IMG/VR virus record: IMGVR_UViG_3300034682_000453
Location: 1-58,998 of that record
Length of the DNA stretch: 58,998 bases
Reading direction: 5' to 3' (one strand)
Origin: a virus
Lineage: Duplodnaviria; Caudoviricetes
The notes beneath the pieces were generated by a model, which was not told where the DNA came from, did not search any database, and was given only the letters and a program-made list of their open reading frames with translations. A program made the position numbers and the translations under genes. Position 1 is the first letter of the stretch. Each line of letters begins with the position of its first letter. Positions 1,665 to 48,031 of this stretch are shown in pieces.

Positions 1665-4600
1665 TCATTCGAATCGCTGAATAAGTTGTGCCGCAAAATC
1701 GTTACGACGTTTCAATAACCTATCAAGTCTGTCTCGTTTCTGTTCAGAGTTAAGCAACTTGTCACGCTGGATGAGTGACATTTCATTGCGCAAGGCACGG
1801 AACTGGAGTTGCGCTTTGTTTAGTGTCTTCCGCCCTGCCAGCTTGGTCTTGTTTTCCTCAAGCAAGGCACTGGCTTCATCAATTCGTCCTTCTTTGCGGT
1901 ATTGAAGAATGGTGTCATAAACCTGATTAGCCTCATCAACCATCCGGTAAAAGTCCTGCATAGCCTGGGTTGATTTAGCAGGCGCGGATCCTTGGTAGAC
2001 TGATTTTAAGATAGGTATTTGATCTGCACGCAATGCCGGACTGGCACCATAATCACCCATCATTCTCACCAAGCTATCACCCATAGCCATGACATATCCA
2101 CCCATAGTTCCGGTGTATCCAGACACAATGTGCTCAAGTTTTTTAGGGCTCATGCCAGTTAACTCGCCTAACTCACGCATCATTAAACTGGTTCGTTCAT
2201 CATAACGAGCTTCTGGGTTTACATTCATGTCGCTCATGCTTTCGATCGGACCACCACGGAACGGATCATAATTGAAATATGCCTCTGTCAGTGGTTTTAC
2301 AACTTGTGGGATTGGGTTTATAGCGAAGGTTTCCAGCATATTCCTTGCGACCACTTTGCCAAACTTTCCAGCAGTGTCCTTGCCTCCCATTGTCCGAGCC
2401 ATACGCTCTGGCAGAGTCCCAAACATCAATCCAATTTCAAACGGTTTTGGAATGCGTAAGTGTTGATCACCTAGCCAGAAGTGCCAATTCAGATCTTTAT
2501 CCCAATCAGGTAAATCTTCATACCGTTCATCGTCCCAATTCAATGCCAGCAGTGCAAGTGATGCCCCGGCTATCATGCCGCCACGTTTAGCTATCTGTTT
2601 TGGATTGGCTTTGATGGCACGACCTAGCTTGCCTAAACCCTGCATGCGAGCGTTAAAGAATGGCAAAACATCGACGAACACCTGCATAAGTTTTGATGCG
2701 CCCATCATAGAGAAATCCATCAAGTCTTTTGCTTCAAATGCGGCTTGAGCATGGGTCTTACCAGCCTTAATTGCAGCCTCATAAACCGCCTCACGGGATC
2801 CGTTTTCTACGGCCTCTCCGACCCGCTCGTATTTCTCCCAGTATTTACCAATAGCATCCATGGCTTGTTTGCCATTACGAACGATGGTTTTTTCGTATCG
2901 GTCAACCTGTTCTGGCGACATACCTTTACGGCGTAATGCCTTGCGGACGGCAGAGGCCATGGCTTCCGGGTCATTCCCGCGTAGGTTACCACCCATGAAG
3001 GAAGCGCCAGAGAACATCATGTCGATTGAGCTATCGTCCATTTTCCATGCTTTTTTCATTCCGCGAATTGAGTCAATCATCGGTTTGAATCCATCTTCAT
3101 TGATCGCCCAGGTGCTCGCAGCATCACGCAGAAAGTTTCTCAACATGAAATCAGGACTCGCTGTAACGCCGGCGGTAAGAATGTGTTTTGCTTTCATAGC
3201 CAGCCGGCGAACGGCACCACGCTCCACTTTTTGGTCAATCATGGTCATGGCATTGAATAGATCTTTGTCGTTAACGCGGATCAGATAGTCTTCACCCTCT
3301 AGCTTCACAATCATCATGTCATTTTGGTTTTTAACTGCTGCCTTTATATCCATCAGATTTGGCTTTGTGAGCACCTCGATTAAGTCCGTTTCAGCCAAGT
3401 TATGAACAACTTTCTGTGCAGCCATATTCTTCATAGCTGCATCAATTGTCTTACTGGTGGTGGTGAAAATGTTCTGCAGTATGTCGTTTACATTAGCGGT
3501 ACCACCTTTTAGCTTTTTAATACCAGCAGTCTGATTGGCTATACCCTTGTGCTTATATGGCCCAGTAACATCGCCATCTTCGGTTTCACGGAAAAATGGG
3601 ACGTACCATTCGCTATCCCATGCGGACCGTTCTTCTGCAGTAAACAGACCGGCCTCTTCGGCTAGATCTAATACTGCTTTATTGAGCGCATTCCATTTTT
3701 TGCGAGCAGATTCAAACTTAATTTCCTTTCCATTTCCCTTGGCTTTTAACGCAGCAATATCTTCTTGTGTAAGTAGATTTTCACGCCCCTCAGCTAATAA
3801 AATTTCTCCACGATGCCCAGCCATCCATCCAAGCCAGTTATGCAGATCTGAACCAAGGCTTTCAAATATTCCCAGCAATGAATCTGCCTCGCCGGTTCCA
3901 TTTTTTCGCTGAATAACGCCATCCTTCCATACTGGCAAGCCATGTAACATCGTGGCATTCATCACCGTGGCAGATCCAGATGCCAATCGTGCGGCAACAT
4001 ACCCAGAATCAGACGCATCAACTTTACCACTGGCATCTTCTGCGTATTTAATTGGTGCCAGCGCATCAAGGATCTGTGTATTGGCTTTTTTGATGGTTTC
4101 ATCAATCCAAGATTTAACTTTTGTGCGGTCAGCTTGTTTTAGCTTATTTATGCGTTCTTTAGTCTTATCGATCACATCTTGTTTTGGGCCAAGACCTAGC
4201 TTATTCATTAACGCATCATCTGCTGGCGATGATCGGCTTAACATTGCATCATTGCGCTTGCGAATATCAGCATCAGTAAGTACACTAAAATTATGACCAC
4301 CCATACTTGAACCTAAGGGCAATTGCAGCCCAGTGCGTAAAGAGTTAAGGTGGTTTTCTTTTATGTATCTGGTCAACCCATCTGATAACCACTGATTGAT
4401 CTGTGCTTCTGGTCGCCCGTGAATACTGGCAATCCGATTAATGTCCAAATATTTACCAGCAACCACTTTCAACTGAATAGCGGATACCACGCTGCGCCCT
4501 GATTTGTCAGCCGCATCAAGCAATACAACTAAACTATCTCCCGGGTGTGTTTTTGAATCGAATACAGAAATTGGGTCATGAAGTAGCTCTGGCAATTTTT

Positions 4601-7600
4601 CAATAACATTCATTGGCACATCATGCTTCACCCCATTGACGGCTTTTCTGATGGTATCCCGACTTATTCTTAGAATAAGATCTGGAGCGCCAACAGCTTT
4701 CAACACTTCTGGCGTACTGCCAATATCGATCATGATCTCGCCACTGCGTTGTGAACGCATTCCTTTTTCTAACTGAGTTCGATAGTTGTCCACATCTTCT
4801 TTATTTGGCTTGAATGGATCAGTTTCGCTGCCATGGCTAAACATTGCATTTTCAGTTTTCGGCGCCAGCACACCATTCTCAATGCCATTCCGCATGTTCT
4901 TGGCGATAGCATGTAATACTTCATCCAAATGTTGCTCAGATTCGTTTTGGCTAATGAAATTCACCTTTTGCAGCGCTGATTTAACCATTCCAACAATACG
5001 CTGCCACATCCTTCCAGCGGGGCCGCTATCAGCTGGTCGATTTTCAGCGTAGTGAGCAAAAGCCTCTTCCATCTGAGTGAACATATCTTTATCAGCGTAG
5101 TTCTTGGTTACAGTGTCAACGGCAGAGCGAATTGCCGGTGATGTTTCATACCCCTTGGCGATAGCATTCATGATCTTCACGTAAGCATCTTCACCAACTA
5201 CATATCGCAACCCATGATGGACTAAGATTTCGTGGCGCATTATTTGTCTTAGTCTCGAAGAGTTTTGAATAGCAGAGGCATTGATCAGGATTGTTTTCGA
5301 GTCAGGAAGGTATGCGGCATTATCCATTTCACCGCTTTGAATTGAATTGGCAAAACCGCGATCAGCTAGCGCTGATTCAAACTCAGTCTGATCTCTTACC
5401 ACTTCGACGTTGATATCCGTTTTGAACTGGCGTAGCCACTGCTTTGCAACCATCGCCGCTTCTGGCTTCGTCATCCCATTGCCAGATTCTTCATCTTTAT
5501 TTTTCTCAAAAGACGATTTTGAGAATAAAGCTACATTTCCATTTCCTTCCGTTTTGTAGTCGATTACTGAAAAAAATCTGTCAAATGCGCCTCTGATAGC
5601 CGGTATCTCACCCGCTGTTGGATACGGATAACTGCTATCTAATTCAAATCCAAGGCTTTCGGCGGCAGACCATGTTTCATTGGAAACAATATTTGCTAGA
5701 TAGTCATTAGATGCATTCTGATCTTGCAGCTTTGAAATAAGATATGACTCAAACGCCCTTGCTGACATCTCCTCTTTTGTTGTCCAATAGTCCTTGCTTC
5801 GCTTCGCATCCAACTTACTTGATCTAGCTTTTATAGCTGTATTTTCAATTGCGCCAACAACAGCGCCGAACGAATCAACCATCTCTTTGCGCACAGCTCC
5901 AGAGTAGAAATAATCACTTCCTCTTGCTGATAGCGAGACATCCCGCGCAGTCGTTAACATCCCATCTTGGTTGCGCATTCTTGAAAAATAATTATCTAGC
6001 GCATGCCACCACTCATGTCCAAGCGAACCAGCTCCGCTTTTTTTTGTAAGATTGATAACCACATTTCCTGGTTCATAATGAGCGGCTGCAGCTCCTATAC
6101 CGCCAGCTCCCCTAGCTCCAAATGCAATACCAAGCTGGCCATTAAGCGATAATGCTTTTGGTGGAACACCAATAATCGCAGCCAAATCCATTAACGCATC
6201 ATAGGCTCTATTCAGATCGCTCTGCCGGCGGTCCTGTTCAACCCAATTACCAAACTCAACACCTCTGAACCCAAAAGTACCCGCGAACATGTCAGTCGTA
6301 ACATCCTCACCACCGCGCATATCCTCACCAACTCGTGGATTATTGGAGTCTTTGCGCTCGTTAGGTATTTTCTTGAATTGTTCAAGCTTGTCGGTTAACT
6401 CATTTTGATTCTCATCTTTGTAGGCCCTAGCTTCTTTTATTGTTTTAAATGGCCCAGACAGAAGTGCTGGATTGCGTCCTATTTTTTTACCAACATAGAA
6501 CCCAGCCCCATCACTCTTACTAAAAATCTCAAACGTGGTTTCTTTAGGTTGGACCTTGCCAATATCCGGCTTCACCTCATACATCTTTTTAAATTGATCA
6601 ATTGCCTGCTCTTTGGTTTCAGCCGAGGCTATCATCATAGGCCAACTACCAAATGATTTTGATTTTGCTGTCCGCTGAACAGACCAAATTGTTTTTGGAG
6701 GGTTAAATTTCTCCCCATAAAATATGCTGTACTGACCCTGTTCAACAGTGAGATCACCAAGCGAGTTTTTATGACCAACCGCATGATACAAGTCTGCCTT
6801 TCCTAGCAACCCGTCCATATACCGACCACGAATTCCGACAGATGAAATCTTATCTTTTAGCGATAATGGTGAAATATTGCCTTCTGCAATTTGAACGGAT
6901 AAATCGCGTAATACTGTTACTTGTTTTGCCCAAGATGACAGCTTGCTAGGTGTTTTTGGTTTTGCTGGAATGGATTCTCTAGCTGATCGGATAAATGAAA
7001 CTGCCCAACCATCCATTCCATTATCAAGCAGATTTCTGTAATTAGGTTCTGGCCACGCCTTTGAAAGTGGAAGCGCCTCCACCTCTTCGGATGTATTACC
7101 GTTCATGCCATCCTTTATGGATTGCCAAACATCCTTTCTGGCCCCGCCAATCTTCTCACCAAAGTCGGATATTTTTCCCTTTTCAGTAGATGTTGCCTTT
7201 CTGGTGGTTGCTAGCTGATTGGTTAATGCATTGTCGCTTCCGATTCGTCCAGGCTCCACAACTGAAGCTTCCGCATTATTGGTGTCTGTGATGGCGGAAT
7301 TAGCATTTCCACTTTGCTCTCCTGTGACGAGTTCACCAACTGTTGCGCCTCCTCCTGTGTTATTACTTGCTGTGACATCGCTTGTTCCAGGAACAGTAGA
7401 AAGCTGTCCATTACTGGTGACATTGCCGGTCTCCTGTTGCTTTGATATGAAGTCTTTAACCGCTGGCACCGAACCTTTACCAACCACAACGCCGGTCTTT
7501 GATTTGATGGCCGTAATGTCGTTATCTTTGGCCCATGCCTTTAATGCAATGGGGTCACCCTCAAGAATCATGGTTCCGTCAAGTTTGTCCTTGAATCCTG

Positions 7601-10600
7601 TCCATGGAAGTTCTTGTTTGGTGGCAACAACAAGTGCTTCCTCCTGCAACGCCACCGGAGCGCTGTTTTCTACTCCCCGATCGCCATTCGATACAACCGC
7701 AACACTATCTTGACCGACAAGCTGATCTTGCTCGTTGTTTGGCATTAGCGCGGTGCTGGTATCTACTTTTGAACTTGGGAATTCATGTAACAGAGGGATT
7801 AATTCCTTAGCTGGCGCATTCAGCCTGATAGCACGAACATCACTGCTAGAATCACGCTTAGCAATCCATTGATGATGACCATCGATAACATAGCCATCAC
7901 TGGAAACCAGAACGGCACGATCACTGTCGGCCTGCTTTGCAGATTCAACCTTATTAGATGAAAACTCTGCTTGTGTTGGTTTCAATTCAGTAGATGGAAT
8001 TGTCTCTTCTTGATGCGAAACACCTCGTGCATTGAGAAAATTGACCATAGCACCACGGTCTGCAGTTTTGATCTGTGGCATTTCTGAACGAGGGATTTTT
8101 AATGAACCTGATTTATCAGAGAAAGATACCCATTCATCATCAATATTAGAGCCACGATACACATGCTCATCCCTTGCTATTGCTTGACCGTTGCTTGACT
8201 CGTTGACGTTAATATCTGGCTGATTTTGAGCAACAACTTGTGGTGAGGCATTTTGCGTAGTGGCTTCTGGTGACTGAGAATCAATACTGTTTTTTGCAAT
8301 TATATCCTTAACGATTGGGGTCGATTTCTTGCCAACAATGACACCAGATTTAGATTTTATGGTAAGCACATTATTGGCTTTAGCCCACTCACTTAACTGG
8401 GCTCTATCACCCTCAAGAAGCATCGTACCATCTGGCTTTTCCTTGTAACCAGTCCATGGAAGTTCTGGCTTGGCTTCTGTTGCAGGCTTTTGAGTTGCAT
8501 CAGCTTCATGGCTTAGCTTGGCTTCTGTCTGATCTGCAATTGGTTGGGCAGCGATTACCGGTTTACCTAACTGTGAGATAGCATCATCTGGATTGTATTT
8601 GCCTGCATTATTGATGTTTACGCGATTTCCGCGCTCATACAATTCAATGGTGCTAGCAGTTCTATCACTTCCAGAACGTTCACCGCGCATTCGAGAAACA
8701 GCTTCATTGATATAGTCACCAGCAACAGAGCGGTCTTTATGTGCTTTTGCCACCTCAATTGATCGCTGAATGACGGCATCTGCCTGCTTAGATGTTAATA
8801 ACCCATCATTTACAGCCTTTTGAAGTCCACCATATGCTTGCTCATTGTCATCTCTTGACGCATCAACTATCGCATTATCACTTGCAGCTTCATTTTGCTT
8901 GACCGTTGTTTGACTGACAGGCTGCTCGTTGACGTTAATATCTTGCTGATTTTGAGCGACATCCTGATTTGACGTTAATTCGTTAACATCAACAAGATCA
9001 GCGGCTTGATTGATGTCGGCGACATTTGTGTCGTTAACATCTGCTTGCGGTGTGGCGATCAGTTGTTGATTCTGGCTTGCCTGTACTTGCTCCAGCTCGG
9101 TCTTATCCACTACCCCAAATCCGCCGGTTGGTAACGCAATCGGTGTTTCAGTTTTTCGGCTGGCCAGCTGCGCTTCTTTTTCCGACCCGAATGGTTTTCC
9201 CCGCTTAGTAACACGTATGGTTTTTAACTGATCAAAGATAGATGCAGATTCTGAACCTGCCCGCTCTATTGATTGCGCTACCAGTGAGCGAGGGTCTCGC
9301 GTTGATTCTGCATCGAGTGATTTATCCGCTGTGGCTCTTGCTTTGGTAACCGGTGGAACATAGTTGTCATTAACACCGTTGCCAGGTTGTCCAGGCATGT
9401 TGATTTGGTTTTTGTAATCTAACCCGCGGGACTCTGGAATGATTTCATTCGATTGACCATCAATAGTCGTGCCCGACTGCTCAGTAGTCGCAGGAACACC
9501 TGCGGGCTCACTGGCAAGCAACAGATCACCCGTAACTCCCGATTCTTGCGGCGTTTTTCCTTGGTTACCTTGCTGTATAGACTGCTGAATTAGATCTTCT
9601 GCAGTTGGTGCACCACCTGCTGCCAGTGCTGATTGTGCTTCGGTATATGGATTAGCATCTTGTAATGCGGATGTGTCTCGACCAGTTGGATTGTTTTGTT
9701 GTGTCCTAAGAAATGCCGGATCATCAGGGTTGCCAGTAACTGATTTTTCAATGGGCGCTAATACACCATTTTCTTCTGCAGCCATGTTTTGCTTAAATTG
9801 CTGCTGATTATTTTGCGCCTGCTGTGTCGCAGCTTGCAGCTCTGGGCTTATGTCACCTTGTCGCTGATATGCCGGGATGCTGAGCGAATCGTCGGTTGGT
9901 TGAGAGTTATTTGCTGCATCTTCCGGACTTGATTCTGCTGCACTTTGCAGATCAGGCGAAAAATCACCAGTCTGTTCAGCTCCGTCACTGGTCTGCGTAG
10001 GATTGTTTGAACCATGAACAACTGAACTACCCGCACCAATACCACCACCAGACATAACACCAAGAAACCCAGCTTCTGCTGCTGATTGCTTAACGCCTTG
10101 CATTGGATCAATGTTTGTCCCAGCAATAGCATTATCACTGCGATTCTGAATGTTTTGTTGTGCACCCTCCTCTGCCGCTTCGCCAACGCCCTCACCCAGT
10201 CCACCTTTAGCAAAACCTTTCCCTGCTCTGGAGAGTAGATTGCCCGTCACTGCAGACGCACCAGCCTTACCGGTTATCATCTTGAACAACATCGCATCGC
10301 CGAGCACGGTCCCAGCGGCGGCAGCAGCATATGTTGTTGGGTCAGACTTCGCGTAGTCAGCGGCCATATCTGCAGTTCGCTGACGAGCTAAATCAAGACG
10401 ATCGGAAGATGACAATGATTGATATTGAGGATCTTGATTAACAAGCTGAACGTTTTGCTTGAATGAGTCACTATTCATTAACTCTTCAAAGCTGAGTGAT
10501 TTAACCGACTCTCTGGTTTGATCTGCTGTTTGTCCAACTGACATTGCTGCACCAGTTGAAAATGCCGCCTTCTCGCCAATACGCTGTGCTGTTAACTCAG

Positions 10601-11333
10601 CAACCTGTGCCGCGTACGCTTCTGGCGCCCTGCGCTTGAGCATTGATCGTGTAACGGCTGCTTTCACGCCCCCTTTAACAGCTCCACCGACAACAAGTGT
10701 CCCGCCAACCGTGCCGATCACATCAGACATTTTCATAGCCCATACGGCTGGATCGGTTGTCCAAGCATCGCCTGCATGCAAGCTTCCACCTTTGTCTTCG
10801 GTAAAAAATTGACGATTCATCGCCTCTTTACCCTGGTCTGAAACAGAATCCTTTACCCAATCACCGCCGCCCTTAATCGCTCCACCAACTGCCTGCGCTA
10901 CTGGCTCAATAACCACATCGGCTGCATCTGCTACCGTGTTGATTGATTTATTTGTGTCGCTACTACTTCCATTAACATTCGCACCATCTGCCAACCCAGT
11001 TGCGACAGCAGCTGCCATCTTTGCTTGTGCTGCGTCTTCTGGGGAAAGAAAAGTATCAGCAGCCTTGCCAGCCAGCCAATTAACGCCCTCACTTAGCATT
11101 GAACCTTTTTGCACTGTTTCGCCAGCGCGAGCCACATCACCAAGACTTAGCTCTTTAATTCCGGTACCAACAGAGGATACGGCAGACCCCATTAACTGCT
11201 TTGGCGCATCTAATGGCTTTATCTCAAGGTTGTTCGGCTTGCCAGCTCTCGAAGCTAAATCATTCCGCAGTTTTATATTTCTATCCCATGATTCAGATAC
11301 GTGGTCTAATTCTTGGTTTTGCTGATCAGCCAT
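1665..11333 (-). CDS. Giant (3222 aa) polyvalent virion/DNA-ejection protein with ParB-like, LPD5/LPD1-like zincin, MuF-C-like and LPD38-like regions
   Basis: N-terminal Gly/Ala-rich helices; LKPTQ...VSSDGYVIDGHHQW (ParB/Srx-like); DFGEKIGGARKD; FGFRGVEFGNWV...GHEWWHALD; HEILVHHGL; C-terminal LRIPKPFEIG...LPER; last gene of the ejection cluster as in 933W-like phages. Confidence 0.8.
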   Translation of the reverse strand: MADQQNQELDHVSESWDRNIKLRNDLASRAGKPNNLEIKPLDAPKQLMGSAVSSVGTGIKELSLGDVARAGETVQKGSMLSEGVNWLAGKAADTFLSPEDAAQAKMAAAVATGLADGANVNGSSSDTNKSINTVADAADVVIEPVAQAVGGAIKGGGDWVKDSVSDQGKEAMNRQFFTEDKGGSLHAGDAWTTDPAVWAMKMSDVIGTVGGTLVVGGAVKGGVKAAVTRSMLKRRAPEAYAAQVAELTAQRIGEKAAFSTGAAMSVGQTADQTRESVKSLSFEELMNSDSFKQNVQLVNQDPQYQSLSSSDRLDLARQRTADMAADYAKSDPTTYAAAAAGTVLGDAMLFKMITGKAGASAVTGNLLSRAGKGFAKGGLGEGVGEAAEEGAQQNIQNRSDNAIAGTNIDPMQGVKQSAAEAGFLGVMSGGGIGAGSSVVHGSNNPTQTSDGAEQTGDFSPDLQSAAESSPEDAANNSQPTDDSLSIPAYQRQGDISPELQAATQQAQNNQQQFKQNMAAEENGVLAPIEKSVTGNPDDPAFLRTQQNNPTGRDTSALQDANPYTEAQSALAAGGAPTAEDLIQQSIQQGNQGKTPQESGVTGDLLLASEPAGVPATTEQSGTTIDGQSNEIIPESRGLDYKNQINMPGQPGNGVNDNYVPPVTKARATADKSLDAESTRDPRSLVAQSIERAGSESASIFDQLKTIRVTKRGKPFGSEKEAQLASRKTETPIALPTGGFGVVDKTELEQVQASQNQQLIATPQADVNDTNVADINQAADLVDVNELTSNQDVAQNQQDINVNEQPVSQTTVKQNEAASDNAIVDASRDDNEQAYGGLQKAVNDGLLTSKQADAVIQRSIEVAKAHKDRSVAGDYINEAVSRMRGERSGSDRTASTIELYERGNRVNINNAGKYNPDDAISQLGKPVIAAQPIADQTEAKLSHEADATQKPATEAKPELPWTGYKEKPDGTMLLEGDRAQLSEWAKANNVLTIKSKSGVIVGKKSTPIVKDIIAKNSIDSQSPEATTQNASPQVVAQNQPDINVNESSNGQAIARDEHVYRGSNIDDEWVSFSDKSGSLKIPRSEMPQIKTADRGAMVNFLNARGVSHQEETIPSTELKPTQAEFSSNKVESAKQADSDRAVLVSSDGYVIDGHHQWIAKRDSSSDVRAIRLNAPAKELIPLLHEFPSSKVDTSTALMPNNEQDQLVGQDSVAVVSNGDRGVENSAPVALQEEALVVATKQELPWTGFKDKLDGTMILEGDPIALKAWAKDNDITAIKSKTGVVVGKGSVPAVKDFISKQQETGNVTSNGQLSTVPGTSDVTASNNTGGGATVGELVTGEQSGNANSAITDTNNAEASVVEPGRIGSDNALTNQLATTRKATSTEKGKISDFGEKIGGARKDVWQSIKDGMNGNTSEEVEALPLSKAWPEPNYRNLLDNGMDGWAVSFIRSARESIPAKPKTPSKLSSWAKQVTVLRDLSVQIAEGNISPLSLKDKISSVGIRGRYMDGLLGKADLYHAVGHKNSLGDLTVEQGQYSIFYGEKFNPPKTIWSVQRTAKSKSFGSWPMMIASAETKEQAIDQFKKMYEVKPDIGKVQPKETTFEIFSKSDGAGFYVGKKIGRNPALLSGPFKTIKEARAYKDENQNELTDKLEQFKKIPNERKDSNNPRVGEDMRGGEDVTTDMFAGTFGFRGVEFGNWVEQDRRQSDLNRAYDALMDLAAIIGVPPKALSLNGQLGIAFGARGAGGIGAAAAHYEPGNVVINLTKKSGAGSLGHEWWHALDNYFSRMRNQDGMLTTARDVSLSARGSDYFYSGAVRKEMVDSFGAVVGAIENTAIKARSSKLDAKRSKDYWTTKEEMSARAFESYLISKLQDQNASNDYLANIVSNETWSAAESLGFELDSSYPYPTAGEIPAIRGAFDRFFSVIDYKTEGNGNVALFSKSSFEKNKDEESGNGMTKPEAAMVAKQWLRQFKTDINVEVVRDQTEFESALADRGFANSIQSGEMDNAAYLPDSKTILINASAIQNSSRLRQIMRHEILVHHGLRYVVGEDAYVKIMNAIAKGYETSPAIRSAVDTVTKNYADKDMFTQMEEAFAHYAENRPADSGPAGRMWQRIVGMVKSALQKVNFISQNESEQHLDEVLHAIAKNMRNGIENGVLAPKTENAMFSHGSETDPFKPNKEDVDNYRTQLEKGMRSQRSGEIMIDIGSTPEVLKAVGAPDLILRISRDTIRKAVNGVKHDVPMNVIEKLPELLHDPISVFDSKTHPGDSLVVLLDAADKSGRSVVSAIQLKVVAGKYLDINRIASIHGRPEAQINQWLSDGLTRYIKENHLNSLRTGLQLPLGSSMGGHNFSVLTDADIRKRNDAMLSRSSPADDALMNKLGLGPKQDVIDKTKERINKLKQADRTKVKSWIDETIKKANTQILDALAPIKYAEDASGKVDASDSGYVAARLASGSATVMNATMLHGLPVWKDGVIQRKNGTGEADSLLGIFESLGSDLHNWLGWMAGHRGEILLAEGRENLLTQEDIAALKAKGNGKEIKFESARKKWNALNKAVLDLAEEAGLFTAEERSAWDSEWYVPFFRETEDGDVTGPYKHKGIANQTAGIKKLKGGTANVNDILQNIFTTTSKTIDAAMKNMAAQKVVHNLAETDLIEVLTKPNLMDIKAAVKNQNDMMIVKLEGEDYLIRVNDKDLFNAMTMIDQKVERGAVRRLAMKAKHILTAGVTASPDFMLRNFLRDAASTWAINEDGFKPMIDSIRGMKKAWKMDDSSIDMMFSGASFMGGNLRGNDPEAMASAVRKALRRKGMSPEQVDRYEKTIVRNGKQAMDAIGKYWEKYERVGEAVENGSREAVYEAAIKAGKTHAQAAFEAKDLMDFSMMGASKLMQVFVDVLPFFNARMQGLGKLGRAIKANPKQIAKRGGMIAGASLALLALNWDDERYEDLPDWDKDLNWHFWLGDQHLRIPKPFEIGLMFGTLPERMARTMGGKDTAGKFGKVVARNMLETFAINPIPQVVKPLTEAYFNYDPFRGGPIESMSDMNVNPEARYDERTSLMMRELGELTGMSPKKLEHIVSGYTGTMGGYVMAMGDSLVRMMGDYGASPALRADQIPILKSVYQGSAPAKSTQAMQDFYRMVDEANQVYDTILQYRKEGRIDEASALLEENKTKLAGRKTLNKAQLQFRALRNEMSLIQRDKLLNSEQKRDRLDRLLKRRNDFAAQLIQRFE

Positions 11334-43178: not shown

Positions 43179-43443
43179 TTGTATATTCCTTTGACGCTAT
43201 CGAAGTGAATCAATGCCCTGGGCTGCTACAACAGCGCCGGGGCTTTTTTATTAGTGATAAACTACTTCCTGATCAATTTCTGCCCCAACTGAACATGGGG
43301 TTTCTAGGCACGACCTACTGAGCATTAATCCGCTACGCTTTTGTAAACAAACGGTTAGCTCAGACATAAGGTTTCGTGACAATGCTTCCATTACTTTTTC
43401 CTCTAAATCAGTTTTATCGTCGTCCATTTATTGGCTTCTCTCG

Positions 43444-44002: not shown

Positions 44003-44065
44003 GTTTATATCTCGAAACAAAACAAAGCAACATATCGAAACATTATTTTGTTTACCATTAGAAAC
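44003..44065. promoter_or_regulatory. Three OR-like operators
   Basis: 16-mers GTTTATATCTCGAAAC (44003), AGCAACATATCGAAAC (44026) and GTTTACCATTAGAAAC (44050), 23-24 bp apart. Confidence 0.75.
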
Positions 44066-44087
44066 AAAGTAATCAGTGGTAAGTTTT

Positions 44088-44750
44088 ATGAATAACGAAT
44101 GGTTCAGCGATCGCCTTGTCGGTTTGGCTAATAAGAATGGTCTTAAGCAAGTTGATATCGTCAGGATTACTGGCGCATCAAGAGCGTCTGTTAGTAAGTG
44201 GTTTGCAGGGATTTCTGTTCCAGATTCAACTTACCTGGCGAAGCTATCTGAACATTTCGAAGTGTCAGTAAATTGGTTGCTAACAGGTAAAGACGGATCT
44301 GTAGGTCACGAAATATCTGTACTAAATGAATACAGGCCTCGCAAAGTTCCTTTGTTATCTAATGTTCAGGCGGGCATGTGGAGTGATACTGGATGCACAG
44401 ATCCACTAATGTCATGTTCTGAATGGGTAAATACAACGGAAGATGTTTCTGAAAATGCATTTGCGTTAACAGTTCGTGGTGACAGTATGTATAACCCAGC
44501 TGATCGCAGAAGTCTGATTGATGGCGCGGTCGTTATTGTTGATACCGCATTCAACCCTGACCCATCAGACCTAAACCATAAGATTGTTGTGGCTATGCTT
44601 GACGGAACTAATGAGGCAACAATAAAAGAGTTTGTGAGAGATGGAGCGAGCGTCTATCTAAAACCGCTAAACCCTAGATACCCAATCATCCCCGTTGATA
44701 GCAATTGCAGAATTGTTGCCGTTGCAAAAGAAGGTAAAATTAAACTTTAA
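44088..44750 (+). CDS. cI: CI repressor, HTH plus S24 autopeptidase
   Basis: N-terminal HTH; VQAG cleavage site; VRGDSM catalytic Ser; ATIKE catalytic Lys. Confidence 0.95.
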   Translation: MNNEWFSDRLVGLANKNGLKQVDIVRITGASRASVSKWFAGISVPDSTYLAKLSEHFEVSVNWLLTGKDGSVGHEISVLNEYRPRKVPLLSNVQAGMWSDTGCTDPLMSCSEWVNTTEDVSENAFALTVRGDSMYNPADRRSLIDGAVVIVDTAFNPDPSDLNHKIVVAMLDGTNEATIKEFVRDGASVYLKPLNPRYPIIPVDSNCRIVAVAKEGKIKL

Positions 44751-44796
44751 AAAACCTGAAAATGTCGATGTTTAGCATAAGGATGTGAACTTGATA

Positions 44797-45279
44797 ATGT
44801 CATTAAACTATTCATCCGTATTTTTGCGAATAGCTCGCGTTATAGCTTTCTTGCTCGCCATATTAACTATAAATAATAGTTATGCTGAATTCGTCATTTC
44901 TGGTGAGGATAGTTGCTTAGGAAATAATGCCTATGCTTATTATTTTTCAGAAAATGCGCCATTCCCTGATTTTTCAGTGAAAGTGAATGAATTTTCTCCA
45001 TTCCAAGACTTAACATTTAAGCTTGTCGATGATCCTATGCAAGCAGATCTTGTATTTGTTGATGGAGCTGAAAACTCCGATATGAAGGTTTGTAAAAACA
45101 GGACTAGCATTGGCGTAAAAACAATTAAAGTATCTGAATTCATTGCATTTCCAAATATAACGGTAAGGCTTTCTGAGTACCCAGCAACCTATGATTACAA
45201 AATTTTTATTTCCTCAAGTGAATTCACAAAAGAAGAAGTCGCTGCGCTTTTTGCAGTTATATGGAAATCCAAAAAATAA
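44797..45279 (+). CDS. Exported protein of unknown function (~160 aa)
   Basis: Signal peptide ending SYA; internal duplication of a VKVxEFxxFxDLT-like segment; start uncertain (GTG 44785 or ATG 44797). Confidence 0.6.
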   Translation: MSLNYSSVFLRIARVIAFLLAILTINNSYAEFVISGEDSCLGNNAYAYYFSENAPFPDFSVKVNEFSPFQDLTFKLVDDPMQADLVFVDGAENSDMKVCKNRTSIGVKTIKVSEFIAFPNITVRLSEYPATYDYKIFISSSEFTKEEVAALFAVIWKSKK

Positions 45280-45346
45280 TGAATGAAAATAGTCACGCTT
45301 AACTTTTGTTGTTTAAGATAAATGTCACAACCAAAGGATGGTTAAA

Positions 45347-45499
45347 ATGAAAAAACTAGCTTTAGTGTTCATGGCTTTACTATCTATATCTGTCAGTTCT
45401 TCCGTTTTTGCTGGAAACTGCCAGCATGATTCAGATACCGCGGCTGATGGGTCTCGTTGTGGTGGTCGATCTGCTGATTCTCGCCCAGGTGGCGATTAA
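45347..45499 (+). CDS. Small secreted two-Cys peptide (50 aa), not in the ORF track
   Basis: AAGGA RBS; MKKLALVFMALLSISVSSSVFA-GNCQHDSDTAADGSRCGGRSADSRPGGD. Confidence 0.75.
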   Translation: MKKLALVFMALLSISVSSSVFAGNCQHDSDTAADGSRCGGRSADSRPGGD

Positions 45500-45500
45500 A

Positions 45501-45797
45501 ATGAATTTTCGTTTTATTTTGGACACCTGTTTGTTCCTTCTGACAAGCTGTGCAACATCACCGAAATACACCGTTCTTGACGCTGATGAAAACATGGTTA
45601 AATCATGTACCTTTGTGGAGTCAGTAAGTGGAACGTCAGGTATTGGCGGATTATTTGCTTCACAAGGCGTATCAAATGCAAAGAGTGAGGCGAGATCTCA
45701 GGCTGCAAGCTCAGGTGCAACGCATATTGTTTGGAGTTCAGTTAGTGGTGGCATGACGGCATCAGTAAGCGGAAGCGCCTATAAATGCCCTAAGTAA
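45501..45797 (+). CDS. Lipoprotein (98 aa)
   Basis: Lipobox LTSC; Cys pair and ARSQAASSGATHIVW...GSAYKC pattern. Confidence 0.75.
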   Translation: MNFRFILDTCLFLLTSCATSPKYTVLDADENMVKSCTFVESVSGTSGIGGLFASQGVSNAKSEARSQAASSGATHIVWSSVSGGMTASVSGSAYKCPK

Positions 45798-45814
45798 ACC
45801 ATAACACCTATTCA

Positions 45815-45842
45815 AGGCTGCCATTCGGCGGCCTTTTTTATT
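45815..45842 (+). terminator. Terminator ending the cI operon
   Basis: AGGCTGCC-ATTC-GGCGGCCT followed by TTTTT. Confidence 0.75.
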
Positions 45843-45869
45843 CCCCGAAGAAACACGAGTCCGATCACA

Positions 45870-45944
45870 AAAGTAACCTCGAAACAGAAATGTTAACTTT
45901 GCGAAACATTTATTCTTGACTAAAAAGTTTCGATGAATTAACTT
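45870..45944 (+). promoter_or_regulatory. pL-like promoter with three OL-like operators
   Basis: TTGACT (45916)-17 bp-TAACTT (45939); 16-mers at 45870, 45892 and 45927 (inverted) match the OR consensus GTTWA-N5-CGAAAC. Confidence 0.75.
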
Positions 45945-46748
45945 TATCACATCGGCACGTTGTGCCAGCAGCAGCACAGAGTGCGGCGAGAGAACAAACC
46001 GGAGTGAGTCACCCGACGACTCAAGCGATACGCGATGTAATGCAAAGCTGAATCAGAGAGCTTTCCCTTACCCCGCGACAGATTGAAACCTTCCGTCAAA
46101 TCTTCGGATTTCTTGACGCGGGAAAACTCAACCTGAAATCGCCGTTCTTTCCGTATCAATCCGTCGATACGGGACAATCTGGGGAAACGAGACTGATATC
46201 TCAGTGAGCAGCAGTCATGGAATCAGCGAAACCCGATGCGGAGAGTATCGGCCGGAGTTGATATGAACTGTGTAACGTTTGTTTGGTCTCTAAAACTCGC
46301 TTGTAAAAGGCATCAGCGTGGCGAGGTTAATTAATAACGCTGAGCAAAGCCCATTCAATGAGTGGGCAACTCAATCTGTTATCGCTAAGCGCTGCGGATA
46401 AAAATGCGGGGAAAGTCGGCCAGCAGCAACACCGGTTATGGCGCTCGAATACCTCCTTGGATAGCAGATTTAGTTGTGATTGTTTTGGCGGGAGCGGTTT
46501 CCACTCTTGCCAAGCGGAAAGTCAACGAAATGGATTATAGCAATGGGGCCAAGCTCACCCCATCCATGAAACAAGTTGCCAGGAATGCGTCTGGTGTGGC
46601 GCCAGACCTTCCGCCAAAACAATCAGGCATGAAAATAAAACGGACCGGAGATTCCGGTAGATAAATCAACGGAGGGTTTACGCAGATGTGAAAACAAATA
46701 CTCCATCTAAATCGATGGCAGAGGTTAATTAATCCTGGTGCGTAAAAA

Positions 46749-46971
46749 CCTACACGAGCAGTAAAGGCTGCGCCGGAGACGTAACCGGTAGTTGTGATGG
46801 TTGGCGAATTGAATTACCGGCAGCGCAGATTATGCGTCTAGTGGTTGCCAACGTGCGCCATGAATGCTCATGCGGTTTAACTCCGCAGCTTGGGACGATA
46901 TGGATTCACTACTAACCATCACAACCAACCCTACACGAACGGTGAAAGGCCGGGCTGGAGACGTAACCAGC
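46749..46971 (+). repeat. Two copies of a two-hairpin motif (46749-46789 and 46930-46971)
   Basis: CCTACACGA-stem-AAAGG-stem-G-stem-AGACGTAA-stem with compensatory changes between the copies. Confidence 0.75.
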
Positions 46972-46976
46972 ATAAC

Positions 46977-47053
46977 ACCCTGTTAGCTCAGCCGGATAGA
47001 GCAACGACCTTCTAAGTCGTGGGTCGCAGGTTCGAGTCCTGTGCAGGGCGCCA
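46977..47053 (+). tRNA. tRNA-Arg (anticodon TCT)
   Basis: Cloverleaf with D arm GCTCAGCCGGATAGAGC, anticodon arm ACGAC-CTTCTAA-GTCGT, T arm GCAGG-TTCGAGT-CCTGT and encoded CCA; A1-C72 mismatch. Confidence 0.92.
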
Positions 47054-47423
47054 TTTCGAGTACATCGGGGATTGCATTGCGCGTGGCTTGCTGTGCGGTG
47101 AGCTTAAAAAGTTGATGCGTGGTGCGCACACGTCATGCGTTGGGTGAGCGTAATTCGACTTGTCGTTGTTCCGCAGTGCAATCCACCGCTGTATTCGTAG
47201 TACAGCAAACCAACATTAATCAACCAATGTTGCTGTGAATGGAAATGGAAAAATACTGCAACGCGCCAGAATGGACGGACGCGCCAAGGCTCACAGATTA
47301 TGAAAAGGCTTGTAACAGGCCTTATCTGAAAGCGCACTCGTTCACCCAAATTGTTGAGCAGCAATCGAATTAGTGCGTCTTCAGATAGTTATCTATCGTA
47401 AACCAGTTTTATCCCATGTGTTT

Positions 47424-47450
47424 TGCCCGGTTCGTCCGGGCTTCTTTTTG
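47424..47450 (+). terminator. tL1-like intrinsic terminator
   Basis: GCCCGG-TTCGT-CCGGGC then TTCTTTTT. Confidence 0.7.
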
Positions 47451-47461
47451 GAGGAAGCGGA

Positions 47462-47659
47462 ATGCAGCAAATGACCAGGACGGATGTTCTCAAAAACAGA
47501 AGCGTGTGGCACACCATCGCAACTCTGCCACCACGCGAAACCAGCAAAGTAAGAATCCAATCGGCAGCAAACAAGGCCGATGTCAGAGCCAAAAATGCCC
47601 GGGATGCAATCTACGACCATCTGGAGCGTAAACGTCTTGATGCCGAGTTTGCACTATGA
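47462..47659 (+). CDS. Early hypothetical protein (65 aa)
   Basis: GGAGG RBS before ATG 47462. Confidence 0.65.
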   Translation: MQQMTRTDVLKNRSVWHTIATLPPRETSKVRIQSAANKADVRAKNARDAIYDHLERKRLDAEFAL

Positions 47660-47730
47660 AGATCGCAGCTCTATTTATCACCGCCGTATTCATCGCAACA
47701 ACAGCCCTACCCCTGATTTACGCCCAATAA
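47656..47730 (+). CDS. 24-aa hydrophobic peptide
   Basis: ATGA overlap; MKIAALFITAVFIATTALPLIYAQ. Confidence 0.4.
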   Translation: MKIAALFITAVFIATTALPLIYAQ

Positions 47731-47809
47731 AAAAGGCCAGCGCTCTCTCACCTTCGCTGACCTCTTCAAGGCTCGAACACCACATTCAAAACCTTTAACT
47801 GGAGGTTAT

Positions 47810-48031
47810 ATGAAACAAACACTCAACGCAATATGCGGGATTGTTCCTGCTATGTCGTCCGACATGCGGTCGTGGTTTTCACGCCGCCGTAAATCACGCC
47901 GCTTCCGCAAAATGCAGGAAACCGCAGCAAAACAGGCCAAGCCGCAAACTTTTGGCTTCAAAGTCGGTGAAGTAATCGAAACTGGTAACCATCCAGTAGT
48001 TCGTCTTCCGGCGGTTAAGGTTGGTGCGTGA
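47810..48031 (+). CDS. Early protein with Arg-rich motif (73 aa)
   Basis: GGAGG RBS; SRRRKSRRFRK. Confidence 0.65.
   Translation: MKQTLNAICGIVPAMSSDMRSWFSRRRKSRRFRKMQETAAKQAKPQTFGFKVGEVIETGNHPVVRLPAVKVGA

Follow-up and report, generated by a model that had tools for sequence, protein, structure and literature searches.

What does a temperate phage place between its early promoter and its first early gene when that interval spans 1.5 kb and holds no evident gene? To our knowledge, how RNA polymerase passes through the early operons of temperate phages beyond lambda, P22, and HK022 is largely unknown, and the role of the long "empty" stretches behind their early promoters is likewise largely unknown. 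We examined this question at positions 45951-47460 of a viral record (IMGVR_UViG_3300034682_000453, Caudoviricetes), whose 58,998 nucleotides are referred to here as the window. A first-pass annotation had pictured this stretch as one array of equivalent structured RNA modules, whereas comparison with related sequences shows two layers, a conserved scaffold and variable cargo inserted into it. We lean towards reading the stretch as the untranslated leader of a repressor-controlled early-left (pL-type) operon of a lambdoid prophage, in which a cis-acting structured scaffold carries exchangeable RNA cargo.

The host of the prophage is probably a Tolumonas-like member of the Aeromonadaceae. Genes are arranged in the order S24 repressor, two low-GC ORFs, terminator, operators and promoter, leader, small ORFs, YqaJ exonuclease, and RecT, with a cro-like gene, an O-like gene, and DnaB on the opposite strand. 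The OL/pL region (45860-45950, + strand) holds a -35 hexamer TTGACT (45916-45921) and a -10 hexamer TAACTT (45939-45944) separated by a 17-nt spacer. A consensus promoter scan did not itself call this promoter at 45916-45944; the relatives have canonical hexamers (TTGACA-17-TAATAT or TATAAT) equally far from the conserved 5' motif. The operator motif GTTTCGA occurs in the OL/pL region at 45879-45885 (- strand) and 45927-45933 (+ strand), and four of its nine sites in the window fall within the two operator regions flanking the repressor gene block, namely the OL/pL region and the gap between the cro-like and cI-like genes (GTTTCGA at 44012 and 44035). At its other end, the leader stops at an intrinsic terminator 12 nt upstream of the first early-left gene (47462-47659, +; 65 aa), whose Shine-Dalgarno sequence GGAGG lies immediately 3' of the terminator T run. 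Homologues of this 65-aa protein are found in G001 and G100 (69-71% identity) and in G104 (45%). Further downstream, a 73-aa protein with the arginine-rich motif RRRKSRRFRKMQ (47810-48031, +) has homologues in the counterpart operon of G100 (46%), G096 (41%), and G002 (41%, partial), and motifs resembling its arginine-rich motif were spotted by eye in G001 and G104. The protein matched no Pfam or PHROG family; it is a candidate RNA-binding or N-like factor of the operon.

That the leader contains no convincing long coding sequence, as noted in the first-pass annotation, holds on closer analysis. With ATG, GTG, and TTG starts allowed, its longest ORF has 86 aa and the others 44 and 42 aa, and its conserved part lacks codon periodicity: this 345-nt part is broken by stops in every one of the six frames in 6/6 versions examined, and its 30 variable sites are distributed 13/6/11 by position modulo 3 (p=0.27). 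It is therefore very improbable that the stretch hides small protein genes, the 86-aa ORF at 46404-46664 with its hydrophobic stretch being one example. ORFs of 86, 44, and 42 aa are indeed present, and the longest has a relative among predicted proteins (P0002), but that match is confined to the part equal to one RNA module, M3, with both ends unrelated, and all five differences within it alter the residue (T>I, R>W, E>G, D>G, S>P). In addition, there is no Pfam family match, the conserved block has stops in all frames without codon periodicity, and no ORF is retained across the related leaders. A third protein match, P0003, which came from the representative search, was rejected as an unrelated repeat protein.

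Eight related leaders were found: four in genomes (a Tolumonas MAG plus three members of its family), one in a viral contig, and three in contigs from metagenomes. Counts out of nine given here comprise the window leader and these eight. Each of the nine versions has some or all of the scaffold parts common to the family (a 5' motif, a UUCG element of ~110 nt, a chain of covarying hairpins, a stem-closed domain, a 14-pair stem, and a terminator), and cargo is inserted between them. The related leaders sit behind at least four different operator sets and in front of varying first genes (L034, G100, G002, and G096), with L034 and G100 bearing a different gene immediately 3' of the terminator. 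The leader is also more conserved than its flanks: one metagenome contig differs from the window at 7 of 471 positions across 46983-47453, versus 38 differences and 11 gaps over 356 positions, and 32 and 2 over 228, in the adjoining coding parts. Some metagenome runs contain 20-70% of the stretch. The question whether modules are shuffled independently among pL leaders, raised with the first-pass annotation, can be answered in the affirmative, as modules are gained, lost, and swapped among the relatives. The cargo of the relatives is a two-ORF cassette, present at a fixed leader site in five of the nine, or none. Other searches gave little: when the leader was compared by BLAST with 50,697 phage records and with 5,426 genomes of E. 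coli, tRNA matches alone came back, and none at all once the tRNA was left out; locus searches seeded with the YqaJ exonuclease retrieved only relatives of 28-37% identity in unrelated phyla, and those seeded with the repressor retrieved none; and exact-pattern scans with several patterns gave no matches.

Overall, the fold excess of the leader over background is modest. Unbiased 150-nt windows have a mean z of -0.99 in the leader versus -0.30 in 72 background windows (p=0.019), and the + strand of the leader windows is more stable than the - strand (p=0.024). Stems of at least 10 bp, with G-U allowed, are not enriched (7.3/kb in the leader versus 5.8/kb elsewhere; p=0.26); for stems of at least 13 bp, three are found in the leader versus 0.38/kb elsewhere (p=0.02), so that long closing stems are ~5-fold enriched. 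When the eight modules listed earlier are each compared with 200 dinucleotide shuffles, five fold better than the shuffles (z -2.35 to -4.65), whereas 46373-46470 does not (z -0.2). The view that the locus is structured at the RNA level on the + strand and heads an early operon is thus supported, and the leader adjoins the repressor-controlled early-left promoter.

The scaffold begins with segment A at the transcript 5' end (45951-46013, +), which comprises a small hairpin (45954-45966) and a conserved motif (CAGCAGCACAGAGTGCGGCGAGA...) found immediately 3' of the promoter in 9/9 leaders, despite differing upstream operators. Next comes element B1 (46040-46150, +), a nearly invariant core with 90% mean column identity over the nine leaders in alignment A2, a UUCG-capped hairpin (46094-46118), and a boxA-like GTTCTTT end (46144-46150); B1 was not seen in the other 400 of 401 sampled genomes of the host order. 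A module previously drawn at 46071-46184 proved weak as drawn: the UUCG hairpin inside it is nearly invariant in all nine leaders, but the module reaches a z of only -1.8, and its CAGATTG/CAATCTG closure, which has no 3' partner in four of nine relatives, is not conserved. The fold of B1 is a predicted one, because the element is invariant and alignment A2 of the nine leaders contains no covarying pair.

The gamma-proteobacterial boxA consensus is given as GYTCTTTAANA (PMC5725501). A perfect match to it directly follows B1, at a fixed place, in four of the nine leaders, and the rrn operons of the host family bear the consensus too. The window departs from it (GTTCTTTCCGT), its site being interrupted by the optional hairpin h1 (CCGTATC...GATACGG, 46151-46172, +; GTTCTTTCC), which is inserted within the boxA-like site and is present in 5/9 leaders (absent in G001, L032, G096, and G104). 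A second boxA-like sequence, GGCTCTTTAGTG, follows hairpin H3 in seven of eight leaders and is deleted in the window, and the window leader is the only one of the nine that lacks both boxA-type sites. Segment B2 (46185-46370, +) is a conserved non-coding block with stops in all frames and no 3-base periodicity; it is optional in the family, being 89-97% identical in six of the nine leaders and absent in G001, G096, and G104. The modules had been described as nearly gap-free, yet 46185-46372 and the spacers, omitted from that module list, hold conserved elements. It is worth noting that G exceeds C throughout 46050-47250, the opposite of a Rho-loading site, such sites being described as pyrimidine-rich and G-poor (PMC5725501).

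The 3' scaffold opens with the stem-closed V domain (47057-47197, +; module 7 of the first-pass annotation), which has a z of -4.5 on the + strand and -1.75 on the - strand. It is found in 6/9 leaders at a fixed scaffold position, with a length of 75-164 nt and a long closing stem every time; the interiors are mutually unrelated, and G100 and G096 use different closing sequences. In this domain and its five counterparts, G-U accounts for 34 of 236 pairs on the + strand and 9 of 207 on the - strand, and the + strand is more stable in 6/6 leaders. The claimed + strand bias of G-U pairs is accordingly clear for 47057-47197 and the five counterparts, but mixed in the 3' part, where the + strand is more stable in five of eight cases. 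Hairpins H1-H4, joined by conserved single-stranded linkers, come next (47188-47322, +): H1 has two fully compensated pairs that split the leaders 4 versus 4, H4 is conserved with an invariant U-G, and H2 and H3 occupy fixed places with four different sequences each. The long RNase III-like stem H5 (47323-47387, +; z -4.65) forms its 14 stem pairs in 8/8 leaders, with the innermost pair gapped in two rows; its one-sided changes all give G-U on the + strand, and its variable apex has at least three unrelated sequences among the leaders. Last come a small hairpin H6 (GATAG/CTATC), a conserved linker, and the intrinsic terminator with its T run (47384-47449, +; the terminator itself at 47425-47441 by terminator scan). 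Three leaders have GCCCGG/CCGGGC as the terminator stem and two have GCCCTC/GAGGG, G104 has a terminator of the same kind, and the G096 leader has none. H2, H3, the V domain, and the terminator thus hold their position while their sequences are replaced.

Every one of the 229 cells of the 3' scaffold pairs, two-sided changes are seen at five pairs, and every one-sided change leads to G-U on the + strand. This covariation score was reached by 0/500 shuffles, and slid controls pair in 25-45% of cells. 

The cargo of the window amounts to ~700 nt and consists of hairpin modules M2-M5, two copies of an e-element, and a tRNA-Arg. The tRNA (46977-47053, +; anticodon UCU, encoded CCA), already recognized in the first-pass annotation, is confirmed by ARAGORN and by the Rfam tRNA model (54.5 bits; gathering score 29), and the G096 leader carries a tRNA-Arg(UCU) at the equivalent place with 84% identity. 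Rfam searches identified nothing besides the tRNA, whether the whole window was scanned at gathering score or 45700-47800 at E up to 10, and the other modules did not match the tRNA model at E up to 10.

The e-elements, which the window leader alone among the nine possesses, are direct repeats of each other. Copy 1 (46751-46790, +) has an ACACGA motif and a 5-bp hairpin (46772-46789) with loop AGACGTAA; copy 2 (46927-46972, +), with its hairpin at 46954-46971, ends 5 nt 5' of the tRNA. The modules had been taken simply to differ in sequence, yet four internal direct repeats exceed 40/40 shuffles, and the e-element repeat scores above all of its 40 shuffles. Outside the leader family, the e-element is found in early-left prophage leaders of three other host-family genomes, and in G024 it directly precedes a tRNA-Pro; within 13 kb, none of these three prophages has a second copy, and their arginine-rich early-left protein (81-83 aa) has no relative in the window. 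Its hairpin pairs in 25/25 cells with one compensatory and two wobble changes, a result equalled by 106 of 500 shuffles with the few sequences at hand. The window leader alone has lost both boxA-type sites and alone carries e-elements; a speculative reading is that its two hairpin plus e-element units might serve as a novel antitermination device that needs no protein.

Among the hairpin modules, M2 (46373-46470, +) is structurally weak: the 11-bp closing stem reported for it is present, but at z -0.2 it folds no better than chance. Its relatives are limited to one near-identical metagenome contig, and it contains a diverged copy of the leader 5' motif. M3 (46477-46625, +) has the longest closing stem of the window, at 18 bp (z -3.2 on the + strand and -3.1 on the - strand); M4 (46675-46750, +; z -2.35) is a closed hairpin immediately 5' of e-element 1; and M5 (46791-46925, +; z -3.0 on the + strand and -2.6 on the - strand) has a 14-bp closing stem. 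The structure of M2, M4, and M5 rests on one sequence, since they have no independent relatives. M2-M5 occur in 0/103 host-family genomes, where 46371-46976 has no further copies except for the e-element, and a protein-search approach for module copies returned nothing for the frame through e-element 1 and M5. By contrast, M3 has a second copy in other surroundings, namely in P0002, which is known as a predicted protein only and in which residues 26-74 of the read-through ORF correspond to 46479-46625 only. This copy is bounded exactly by the closing stem and differs from M3 in a compensatory pair, a single G-U change, and two substitutions in unpaired stretches; the changes deduced at 46534 (A>G) and 46563 (T>C) lie at paired positions.

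These features also bear on a rather improbable alternative, in which M2-M5 are DNA-level passengers without RNA function, either MITE-like palindromes or scars of recombination and duplication between co-resident prophage leaders, tolerated because the leader is untranslated. Terminal inverted repeats of 14-18 bp close units of 135-149 bp without coding capacity, with 18-bp arms around 113 nt in M3 and 14-bp arms (12 bp fully complementary, 14 with G-U) around 107 nt in M5, as in MITEs. M3 and M5 fold about equally on both strands, short direct repeats lie at module borders, the diverged 5'-motif copy in M2 suggests duplication, and modules are present or absent among near-identical relatives in a leader that also takes up the two-ORF cassette at a fixed site in 5/9 cases. 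However, MITEs would differ in being dispersed, whereas the 103 family genomes hold no scattered copies of M2-M5 (nor any further copies of 46371-46976, the e-element apart), and no target-site duplication is seen at the module ends, including those of M3 and M5. Moreover, what separates the two M3 copies is not random substitution but a compensatory pair and a G-U change, and the e-element hairpin stays paired through a C-G to U-A replacement and two wobble changes.

We therefore return to the cis-acting scaffold with exchangeable cargo. Judged from sequence, the job of the leader is probably transcription control and RNA processing. The comparisons establish the layout, the lack of coding, the conserved and covarying scaffold hairpins, the swapping of modules, and the second, independent M3 copy, whereas antitermination, processing, and any function of M2-M5 are inferred. 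Acting in cis, the scaffold would enable RNA polymerase, or the transcript itself, to get past the terminator and ~0.7-1.5 kb of RNA that is not translated; Nus factors at boxA, the small arginine-rich protein conserved in the operon, or both would mediate this. The scaffold may also be cut at its long stems, and the cargo would be co-transcribed immediately on induction, with the tRNA-Arg presumably released by normal tRNA processing. B1, H1-H5, and the terminator are the best conserved parts and stand at fixed positions, which points to a function in cis rather than to free RNAs. Some observations run against a role in cis, namely that the two boxA-like sites of the window are both degenerate, that the rightward operon has no second copy of B1, boxA, or the e-element, that G096 has no terminator, that B1 lacks covariation, and that the fold statistics are modest.

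We are doubtful of the alternative closest to the first-pass annotation, a polycistronic cassette from which RNase III, E, or P releases stable RNAs of 75-150 nt that would serve in trans, for instance against host defence, as decoys, mimics, or protein sponges. The modules are discrete and exchangeable, the M3 copy is stem-bounded and carries a compensatory change, every V domain is closed by a stem around a free interior, and long closing stems are enriched ~5-fold, all of which agree with such a cassette. A real tRNA lies within the same transcript, which must therefore be processed, and DicF, for which excision by RNase III and RNase E is described (PMC10448788), offers a precedent. Leader parts are also present in metatranscriptome contigs from two studies, as discussed below. 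On the other hand, no Rfam family matches the modules, none of them can be tied to a target, a partner protein, or a defence gene, M2 is not structured, and the best-conserved parts belong to the fixed-position scaffold. In addition, the modules are missing from most relatives and are therefore dispensable for the phage. An extension of this idea, which we offer as a tentative speculation, is that early-left leaders form a marketplace for "RNA morons," stem-closed units (M3, M5, the V domain, and hairpin plus e-element) that might move between phages, be expressed first on induction, be released by RNase III or RNase P, and act in trans on functions of the host or of rival phages. The sequences themselves give evidence that a stem-closed RNA domain can pass as a unit from one phage context to another, and if such domains prove functional, the concept of the phage accessory gene would widen to RNA. 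The leader family is a tractable case: nature provides nine variants, some of them in Tolumonas-family genomes, and the parts (invariant RNA element, boxA site, terminator gate, and exchangeable cargo) are separable.

Among known systems, the leader is most like the dicBF/DicF and lambda nutL leaders. The lambda pL-nutL-N leader has boxA, boxB, and an RNase III site before N. The likeness extends to the position behind OL/pL, a boxA-type site in the family, an RNase III-like hairpin shortly before the first gene, and an arginine-rich small protein encoded in the operon. However, in the window the boxA is interrupted, the UUCG hairpin (46094-46118) lies ~25 nt upstream of the boxA-like site with no boxB downstream, and the arginine-rich protein is encoded 3' of the terminator and has no N family match. 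A nutR-type counterpart was not found either, as the leader has no match of more than 13 nt elsewhere in the window, the rightward-operon strand of the early-right region has no boxA pattern, and the rightward operon has no second copy of B1, boxA, or the e-element where nutR or putR would be expected. The put sites of HK022 are described as protein-free cis-acting RNAs just 3' of PL that let polymerase pass terminators (PMC9378689). The window resembles HK022 in having no N gene before the terminator and one nearly invariant RNA element, but put is ~70 nt long with two stem-loops and a second copy after PR, and the window has no second copy.

In the dicBF operon of the Qin prophage, DicF is described as processed by RNase III and RNase E out of a prophage operon repressed by a CI-like protein (PMC10448788). 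Like the window, dicBF is thus a CI-like-repressed lambdoid early operon that starts with non-coding RNA, and for DicF excision has been shown. The window differs in that Rfam DicF (RF00039) is not matched over 45700-47800 even at E up to 10, the leader resembles no DNA in the 5,426 E. coli genomes, and the leader is 1.5 kb long, with a tRNA inside and a terminator of its own at the end. The leader also recalls rrn leaders and spacers, which share with it long structured untranslated RNA, the boxA consensus, long closing stems, and an embedded tRNA. Beyond boxA, however, the sequence likeness is not clearly significant against shuffles: the leader and the host-family rrn leader share a string of 7-9 nt (CAATCTG), and for the various relatives between 7 and 490 of 500 shuffles equalled the local alignment score. 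The window stems have a putative RNase III role. Unlike retron or other RT-associated non-coding RNAs, the leader has no adjacent reverse transcriptase among the 20 neighbouring proteins scanned (Pfam, PHROGs), and no match to the GOLLD and ROOL models of Rfam turned up, either in the window at gathering score or, within the region, at E up to 10.

Stx-type lambdoid phages have tRNA genes in leaders, and the T4 tRNA cluster includes stable RNAs. In both, as presumably in the window, a regulated promoter drives phage tRNAs together with non-coding RNA, but there the tRNAs lie in late or separate units, whereas the window tRNA lies in an early-left leader with hairpin modules. The large terminase of the prophage is 67% identical to the large terminases of Stx phages.

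Leader parts are present in contigs from two metatranscriptome studies, although such contigs cannot exclude carried-over DNA and show no RNA ends; leader parts without contig cover in the RNA runs carry no weight. Several contigs join distant leader positions with a shorter side of fewer than 30 letters and possibly derive from other organisms (46796>47057, 47075>47178, 47076>47174, 47336>47408, and 47338>47401). The only better-founded joints are 46137>46974 (sides of 30 and 39) and 46371>46741 (side of 45), and one metatranscriptome contig contains 46741-46920, including most of M5.

The region at 45951-47460 is a real, conserved, non-coding and structured leader with exchangeable RNA cargo, lying in a 58,998-bp provirus record of lambdoid gene layout. 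The large terminase of this provirus shares 76% identity with its counterpart in Aeromonas phage phiARM81mr, compared with 67% for Stx-converting phages. Read along the + strand, an S24/HTH repressor gene (44076-44750) comes first, followed by two low-GC ORFs (44785-45797) between the repressor gene and pL, in the position of lambda rexAB, then by an intrinsic terminator (45814-45841, + strand) and the leader, and downstream, also on the + strand, by small ORFs and the genes for a YqaJ exonuclease and a RecT protein. A cro-like regulator, an O-like initiator, a DnaB-type helicase and NinB are encoded on the - strand, divergently from the repressor; the gene order is the mirror image of the lambda cI-rex-pL-early-left arrangement. 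The heptamer GTTTCGA occurs at nine sites in the window: two of them (44012 and 44035) are between the cro-like and repressor genes, and another two flank a TTGACT-17-TAACTT promoter at 45916-45944. Because this promoter is flanked by operators, the start at 45951 proposed in the first-pass annotation agrees with where early-left transcription would begin; a consensus promoter scan did not call the promoter.

Elsewhere in this layout, the ORFs at the rexAB-like position match no Pfam or PHROG family; GC is 33-35% in the first and climbs to ~45% in the second, one of them has a lipoprotein-like N-terminus, and relatives carry diverged or other genes there. Between small ORFs of the early-right operon there is a GC-rich hairpin (43210-43260) with a T run behind it on the + strand, which is an A run on the - strand; it may act as a terminator in one direction or the other. 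A single ORF of 3,222 aa (1665-11333, - strand) lies at the end of the late region.

Among GenBank phages and E. coli genomes, only the tRNA part of the leader finds matches, and an Rfam scan of the leader likewise returned the tRNA only. A sequencing-run look-up placed copies, some near-identical and some diverged, in metagenomes from groundwater and wastewater. Eight further leaders came from exact-pattern scans and genome searches: one on an IMG/VR contig (G001), three on metagenome contigs (L032-L034), one in a MAG titled Tolumonas sp. (G002), Tolumonas being a member of the Aeromonadaceae, and three more among the 103 genomes of that MAG's family (G096, G100, G104). In a sample of 401 genomes of the order, a search for the core element drew a blank in all but one. 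Since at least four different operator sets lie upstream of the nine leaders, and the first gene downstream differs as well (e.g., in L034, G100, G002, and G096), the leader is a portable unit that extends from transcription start to terminator. In one metagenome variant, 7 of 471 positions differ across 46983-47453, compared with ~14% in the coding DNA on both sides, a pattern that points to either strong constraint or recent exchange of the leader.

The scaffold begins with segment A (45951-46013), a 5' motif, and the ~110-nt block B1 (46040-46150; mean column identity 90%), which contains a UUCG-capped hairpin; both are present in all nine leaders. Its 3' part comprises a stem-closed V domain (47057-47197; six of nine leaders), hairpins H1-H4 (47188-47322) and the small hairpin H6, which belong to the common scaffold, and the long stem H5 (47323-47387), found in 8/8 leaders whose sequence extends to that point. 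H6 shares 47384-47449 with an intrinsic terminator adjoining the ribosome-binding site, which is present in six of the seven leaders that reach the first gene and missing in G096. Optional parts are hairpin h1 (46151-46172; 5/9), block B2 (46185-46370; 6/9) and a convergent two-ORF cassette of ~500 nt inserted at 46013/46019 (5/9). The ~700-nt cargo block (46371-47056) consists of modules M2 (46373-46470), M3 (46477-46625) and M4 (46675-46750), a first e-element (46751-46790), M5 (46791-46925), a second e-element (46927-46972) and tRNA-Arg (46977-47053). Among the nine leaders, this block is confined to the window; one near-identical metagenome contig that covers 46108-47022 (5 differences) has it as well. 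G096 has a tRNA-Arg(UCU) at the equivalent scaffold position, followed by an identical 16-nt linker. Two joints in metagenome contigs (46137>46974 and 46371>46741) omit whole module sets and are better founded than the remaining joints, whose sides are short and which could be artefactual. Independent shuffling of modules among related leaders, a check proposed in the first-pass annotation, is borne out; the scaffold-and-cargo anatomy and module exchange are both shown.

The two-ORF cassette was located at 3330-3735 of L030 (G001) and also in L032, L033, L042, and L044. Its convergent ORFs encode ~57-72 aa; for the reverse-oriented one, the ribosome-binding region is conserved and the protein sequence is variable. 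One possibility is that the two form a small regulatory or toxin-antitoxin-like pair.

For the 3' scaffold, the alignment supports an RNA structure. All 229 cells of 29 predicted pairs are standard pairs, five pairs have two-sided changes, the covariation score was reached by none of 500 shuffles, and pairing falls to 25-45% when partners are slid by 1-3 columns. The one-sided changes all yield G-U or U-G on the + strand, which would be A-C mismatches on the other strand. In parts that MAFFT could not align, single-sequence folds located hairpins that hold fixed places between conserved linkers, their sequences having been replaced: H2 and H3 each occur in four different sequences, and the terminator has one of two stems, GCCCGG/CCGGGC or GCCCTC/GAGGG. 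The V domain ranges from 75 to 164 nt; its interiors are unrelated, and the closing stems differ as well in G100 and G096. Its + strand is the more stable in 6/6 leaders, with 34 G-U among 236 pairs compared with 9 among 207 on the - strand, in line with the G-U bias reported initially. B1 is invariant and its fold has no covariation support; one divergent relative disrupts two outer-helix pairs. The closure CAGATTG/CAATCTG proposed for 46071-46184 is not conserved, its 3' partner being missing in four relatives.

The inverted repeats listed in the first-pass annotation are present in the sequence. Against 200 dinucleotide shuffles, fold z-scores on the + strand were -4.65 for H5, -4.5 for the V domain (-1.75 on the - strand), -3.2 for M3, -3.0 for M5, -2.35 for M4, -1.8 for 46071-46184, -1.05 for tRNA-Arg and -0.2 for M2. 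As these modules had been chosen by eye, unbiased window controls were run: mean z was -0.99 in 28 tiled 150-nt leader windows and -0.30 in 72 windows elsewhere (p=0.019), and leader windows folded better on the + strand than on the - strand (p=0.024). Ungapped stems that are >=10 bp long and span 40-170 nt occur frequently throughout (7.3/kb in the leader vs 5.8/kb elsewhere), whereas stems of >=13 bp are enriched about five-fold (3 in the leader vs 0.38/kb elsewhere; p=0.02), and the 18-bp stem of M3 is the longest in the window. The structure is real, with a moderate excess over background that comes from M3, M5, the V domain and H5; module 46373-46470 finds no support.

The region is also non-coding, as first described: its largest ORFs reach 86 aa, the largest without a Pfam match, the conserved block has stops in all six frames in 6/6 versions, and its 30 variable sites split 13/6/11 by position modulo 3. 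For the ORF that spans M2 and M3, searches of 5.8 billion clustered proteins and of 1.84 billion representatives gave a single real relative. The match covers residues 26-74 only, i.e., 46479-46625, which takes in M3 from one end of its closing stem to the other, and both ends are unrelated. All five differences within it change the residue, being read as single-base changes from a protein in which synonymous ones are invisible. Two of them, 46534 A>G and 46563 T>C, fall on mutually paired bases of the M3 fold; the others are one C-G to U-G change and two at unpaired bases. Even so, this pattern is as expected of an exchanged RNA domain and not of a protein gene.

The e-element (45 nt) combines an ACACGA motif with a 5-bp hairpin whose loop is AGACGTAA. 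Both copies in the window directly follow a closed hairpin (M4, M5). Three further genomes of the family have prophages whose early-left leaders also carry the element behind a closed hairpin; in G024 it lies immediately 5' of a tRNA-Pro. Its stem pairing is kept through one compensatory and two wobble changes, in five sequences, too few for significance. Since four internal direct repeats of the leader exceed all 40 shuffles, part of the cargo may derive from duplication or recombination between leaders. The three other prophages (G045, G024, G035; loci L071, L072, L075) have long structured early-left leaders with a 5' hairpin, the e-element, GCAATCAGGACC repeats and an internal terminator (and, in G024, the tRNA-Pro), followed by an 81-83-aa protein with a P22-N-like arginine-rich motif (GNAARRR).

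At 0.7-1.5 kb, the untranslated RNA would need shielding from Rho, and the transcript would have to cross the terminator just ahead of the ribosome-binding site of the first gene. Several features of the family fit these needs. The leader is G-rich, not C-rich. The gamma-proteobacterial boxA consensus GYTCTTTAANA (PMC5725501) has a perfect match at one fixed position behind B1 in G001, L032, G096, and G104, and it also occurs in rrn leaders and spacers of G096, G100, and G104; beyond boxA, likeness to the rrn leader is not significant. A second near-consensus site follows H3 in seven of eight leaders. The operons of the window, G100, G096, and G002 encode a small protein whose arginine-rich motif reads (R/K)RR-x-x-R-x-(F/Y)R-x-MQ, and similar proteins occur in G001 and G104; the 73-aa protein of the window (47810-48031), conserved in relatives' early-left operons, matches no known family and is a candidate N-like or RNA-binding protein. 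Most likely, the leader works by antitermination through B1 and boxA, which would form a folding device dependent on Nus factors and/or the small protein, with processing at the long stems and the tRNA to follow. Caveats to this reading, besides the weak likeness to the rrn leader, are that G096 has no terminator, that both boxA-type sites are lost in the window, and that the rightward operon of the window holds no second copy of any leader element. The window also has the only one of the nine leaders carrying e-units (closed hairpin plus e-element), which in this single case may be a functional replacement.

Among published systems, the dicBF operon of the Qin prophage comes closest: a CI-like protein represses it, and RNase III together with RNase E releases the DicF sRNA from it (PMC10448788); the leader has no Rfam match to DicF. 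Lambda nutL-N, HK022 put (PMC9378689) and rrn leaders each have some features in common with the leader and differ in others. Among the papers searched on antiterminator RNAs and lambdoid leader RNAs we found no description of this leader family, though one may be in print. Within the early-left operon, the 65-aa first gene shares an ATGA overlap at its stop codon with a 24-aa hydrophobic ORF (MKIAALFITAVFIATTALPLIYAQ; 47656-47730). This ORF is conserved as a protein in G001 and could be a small membrane peptide.
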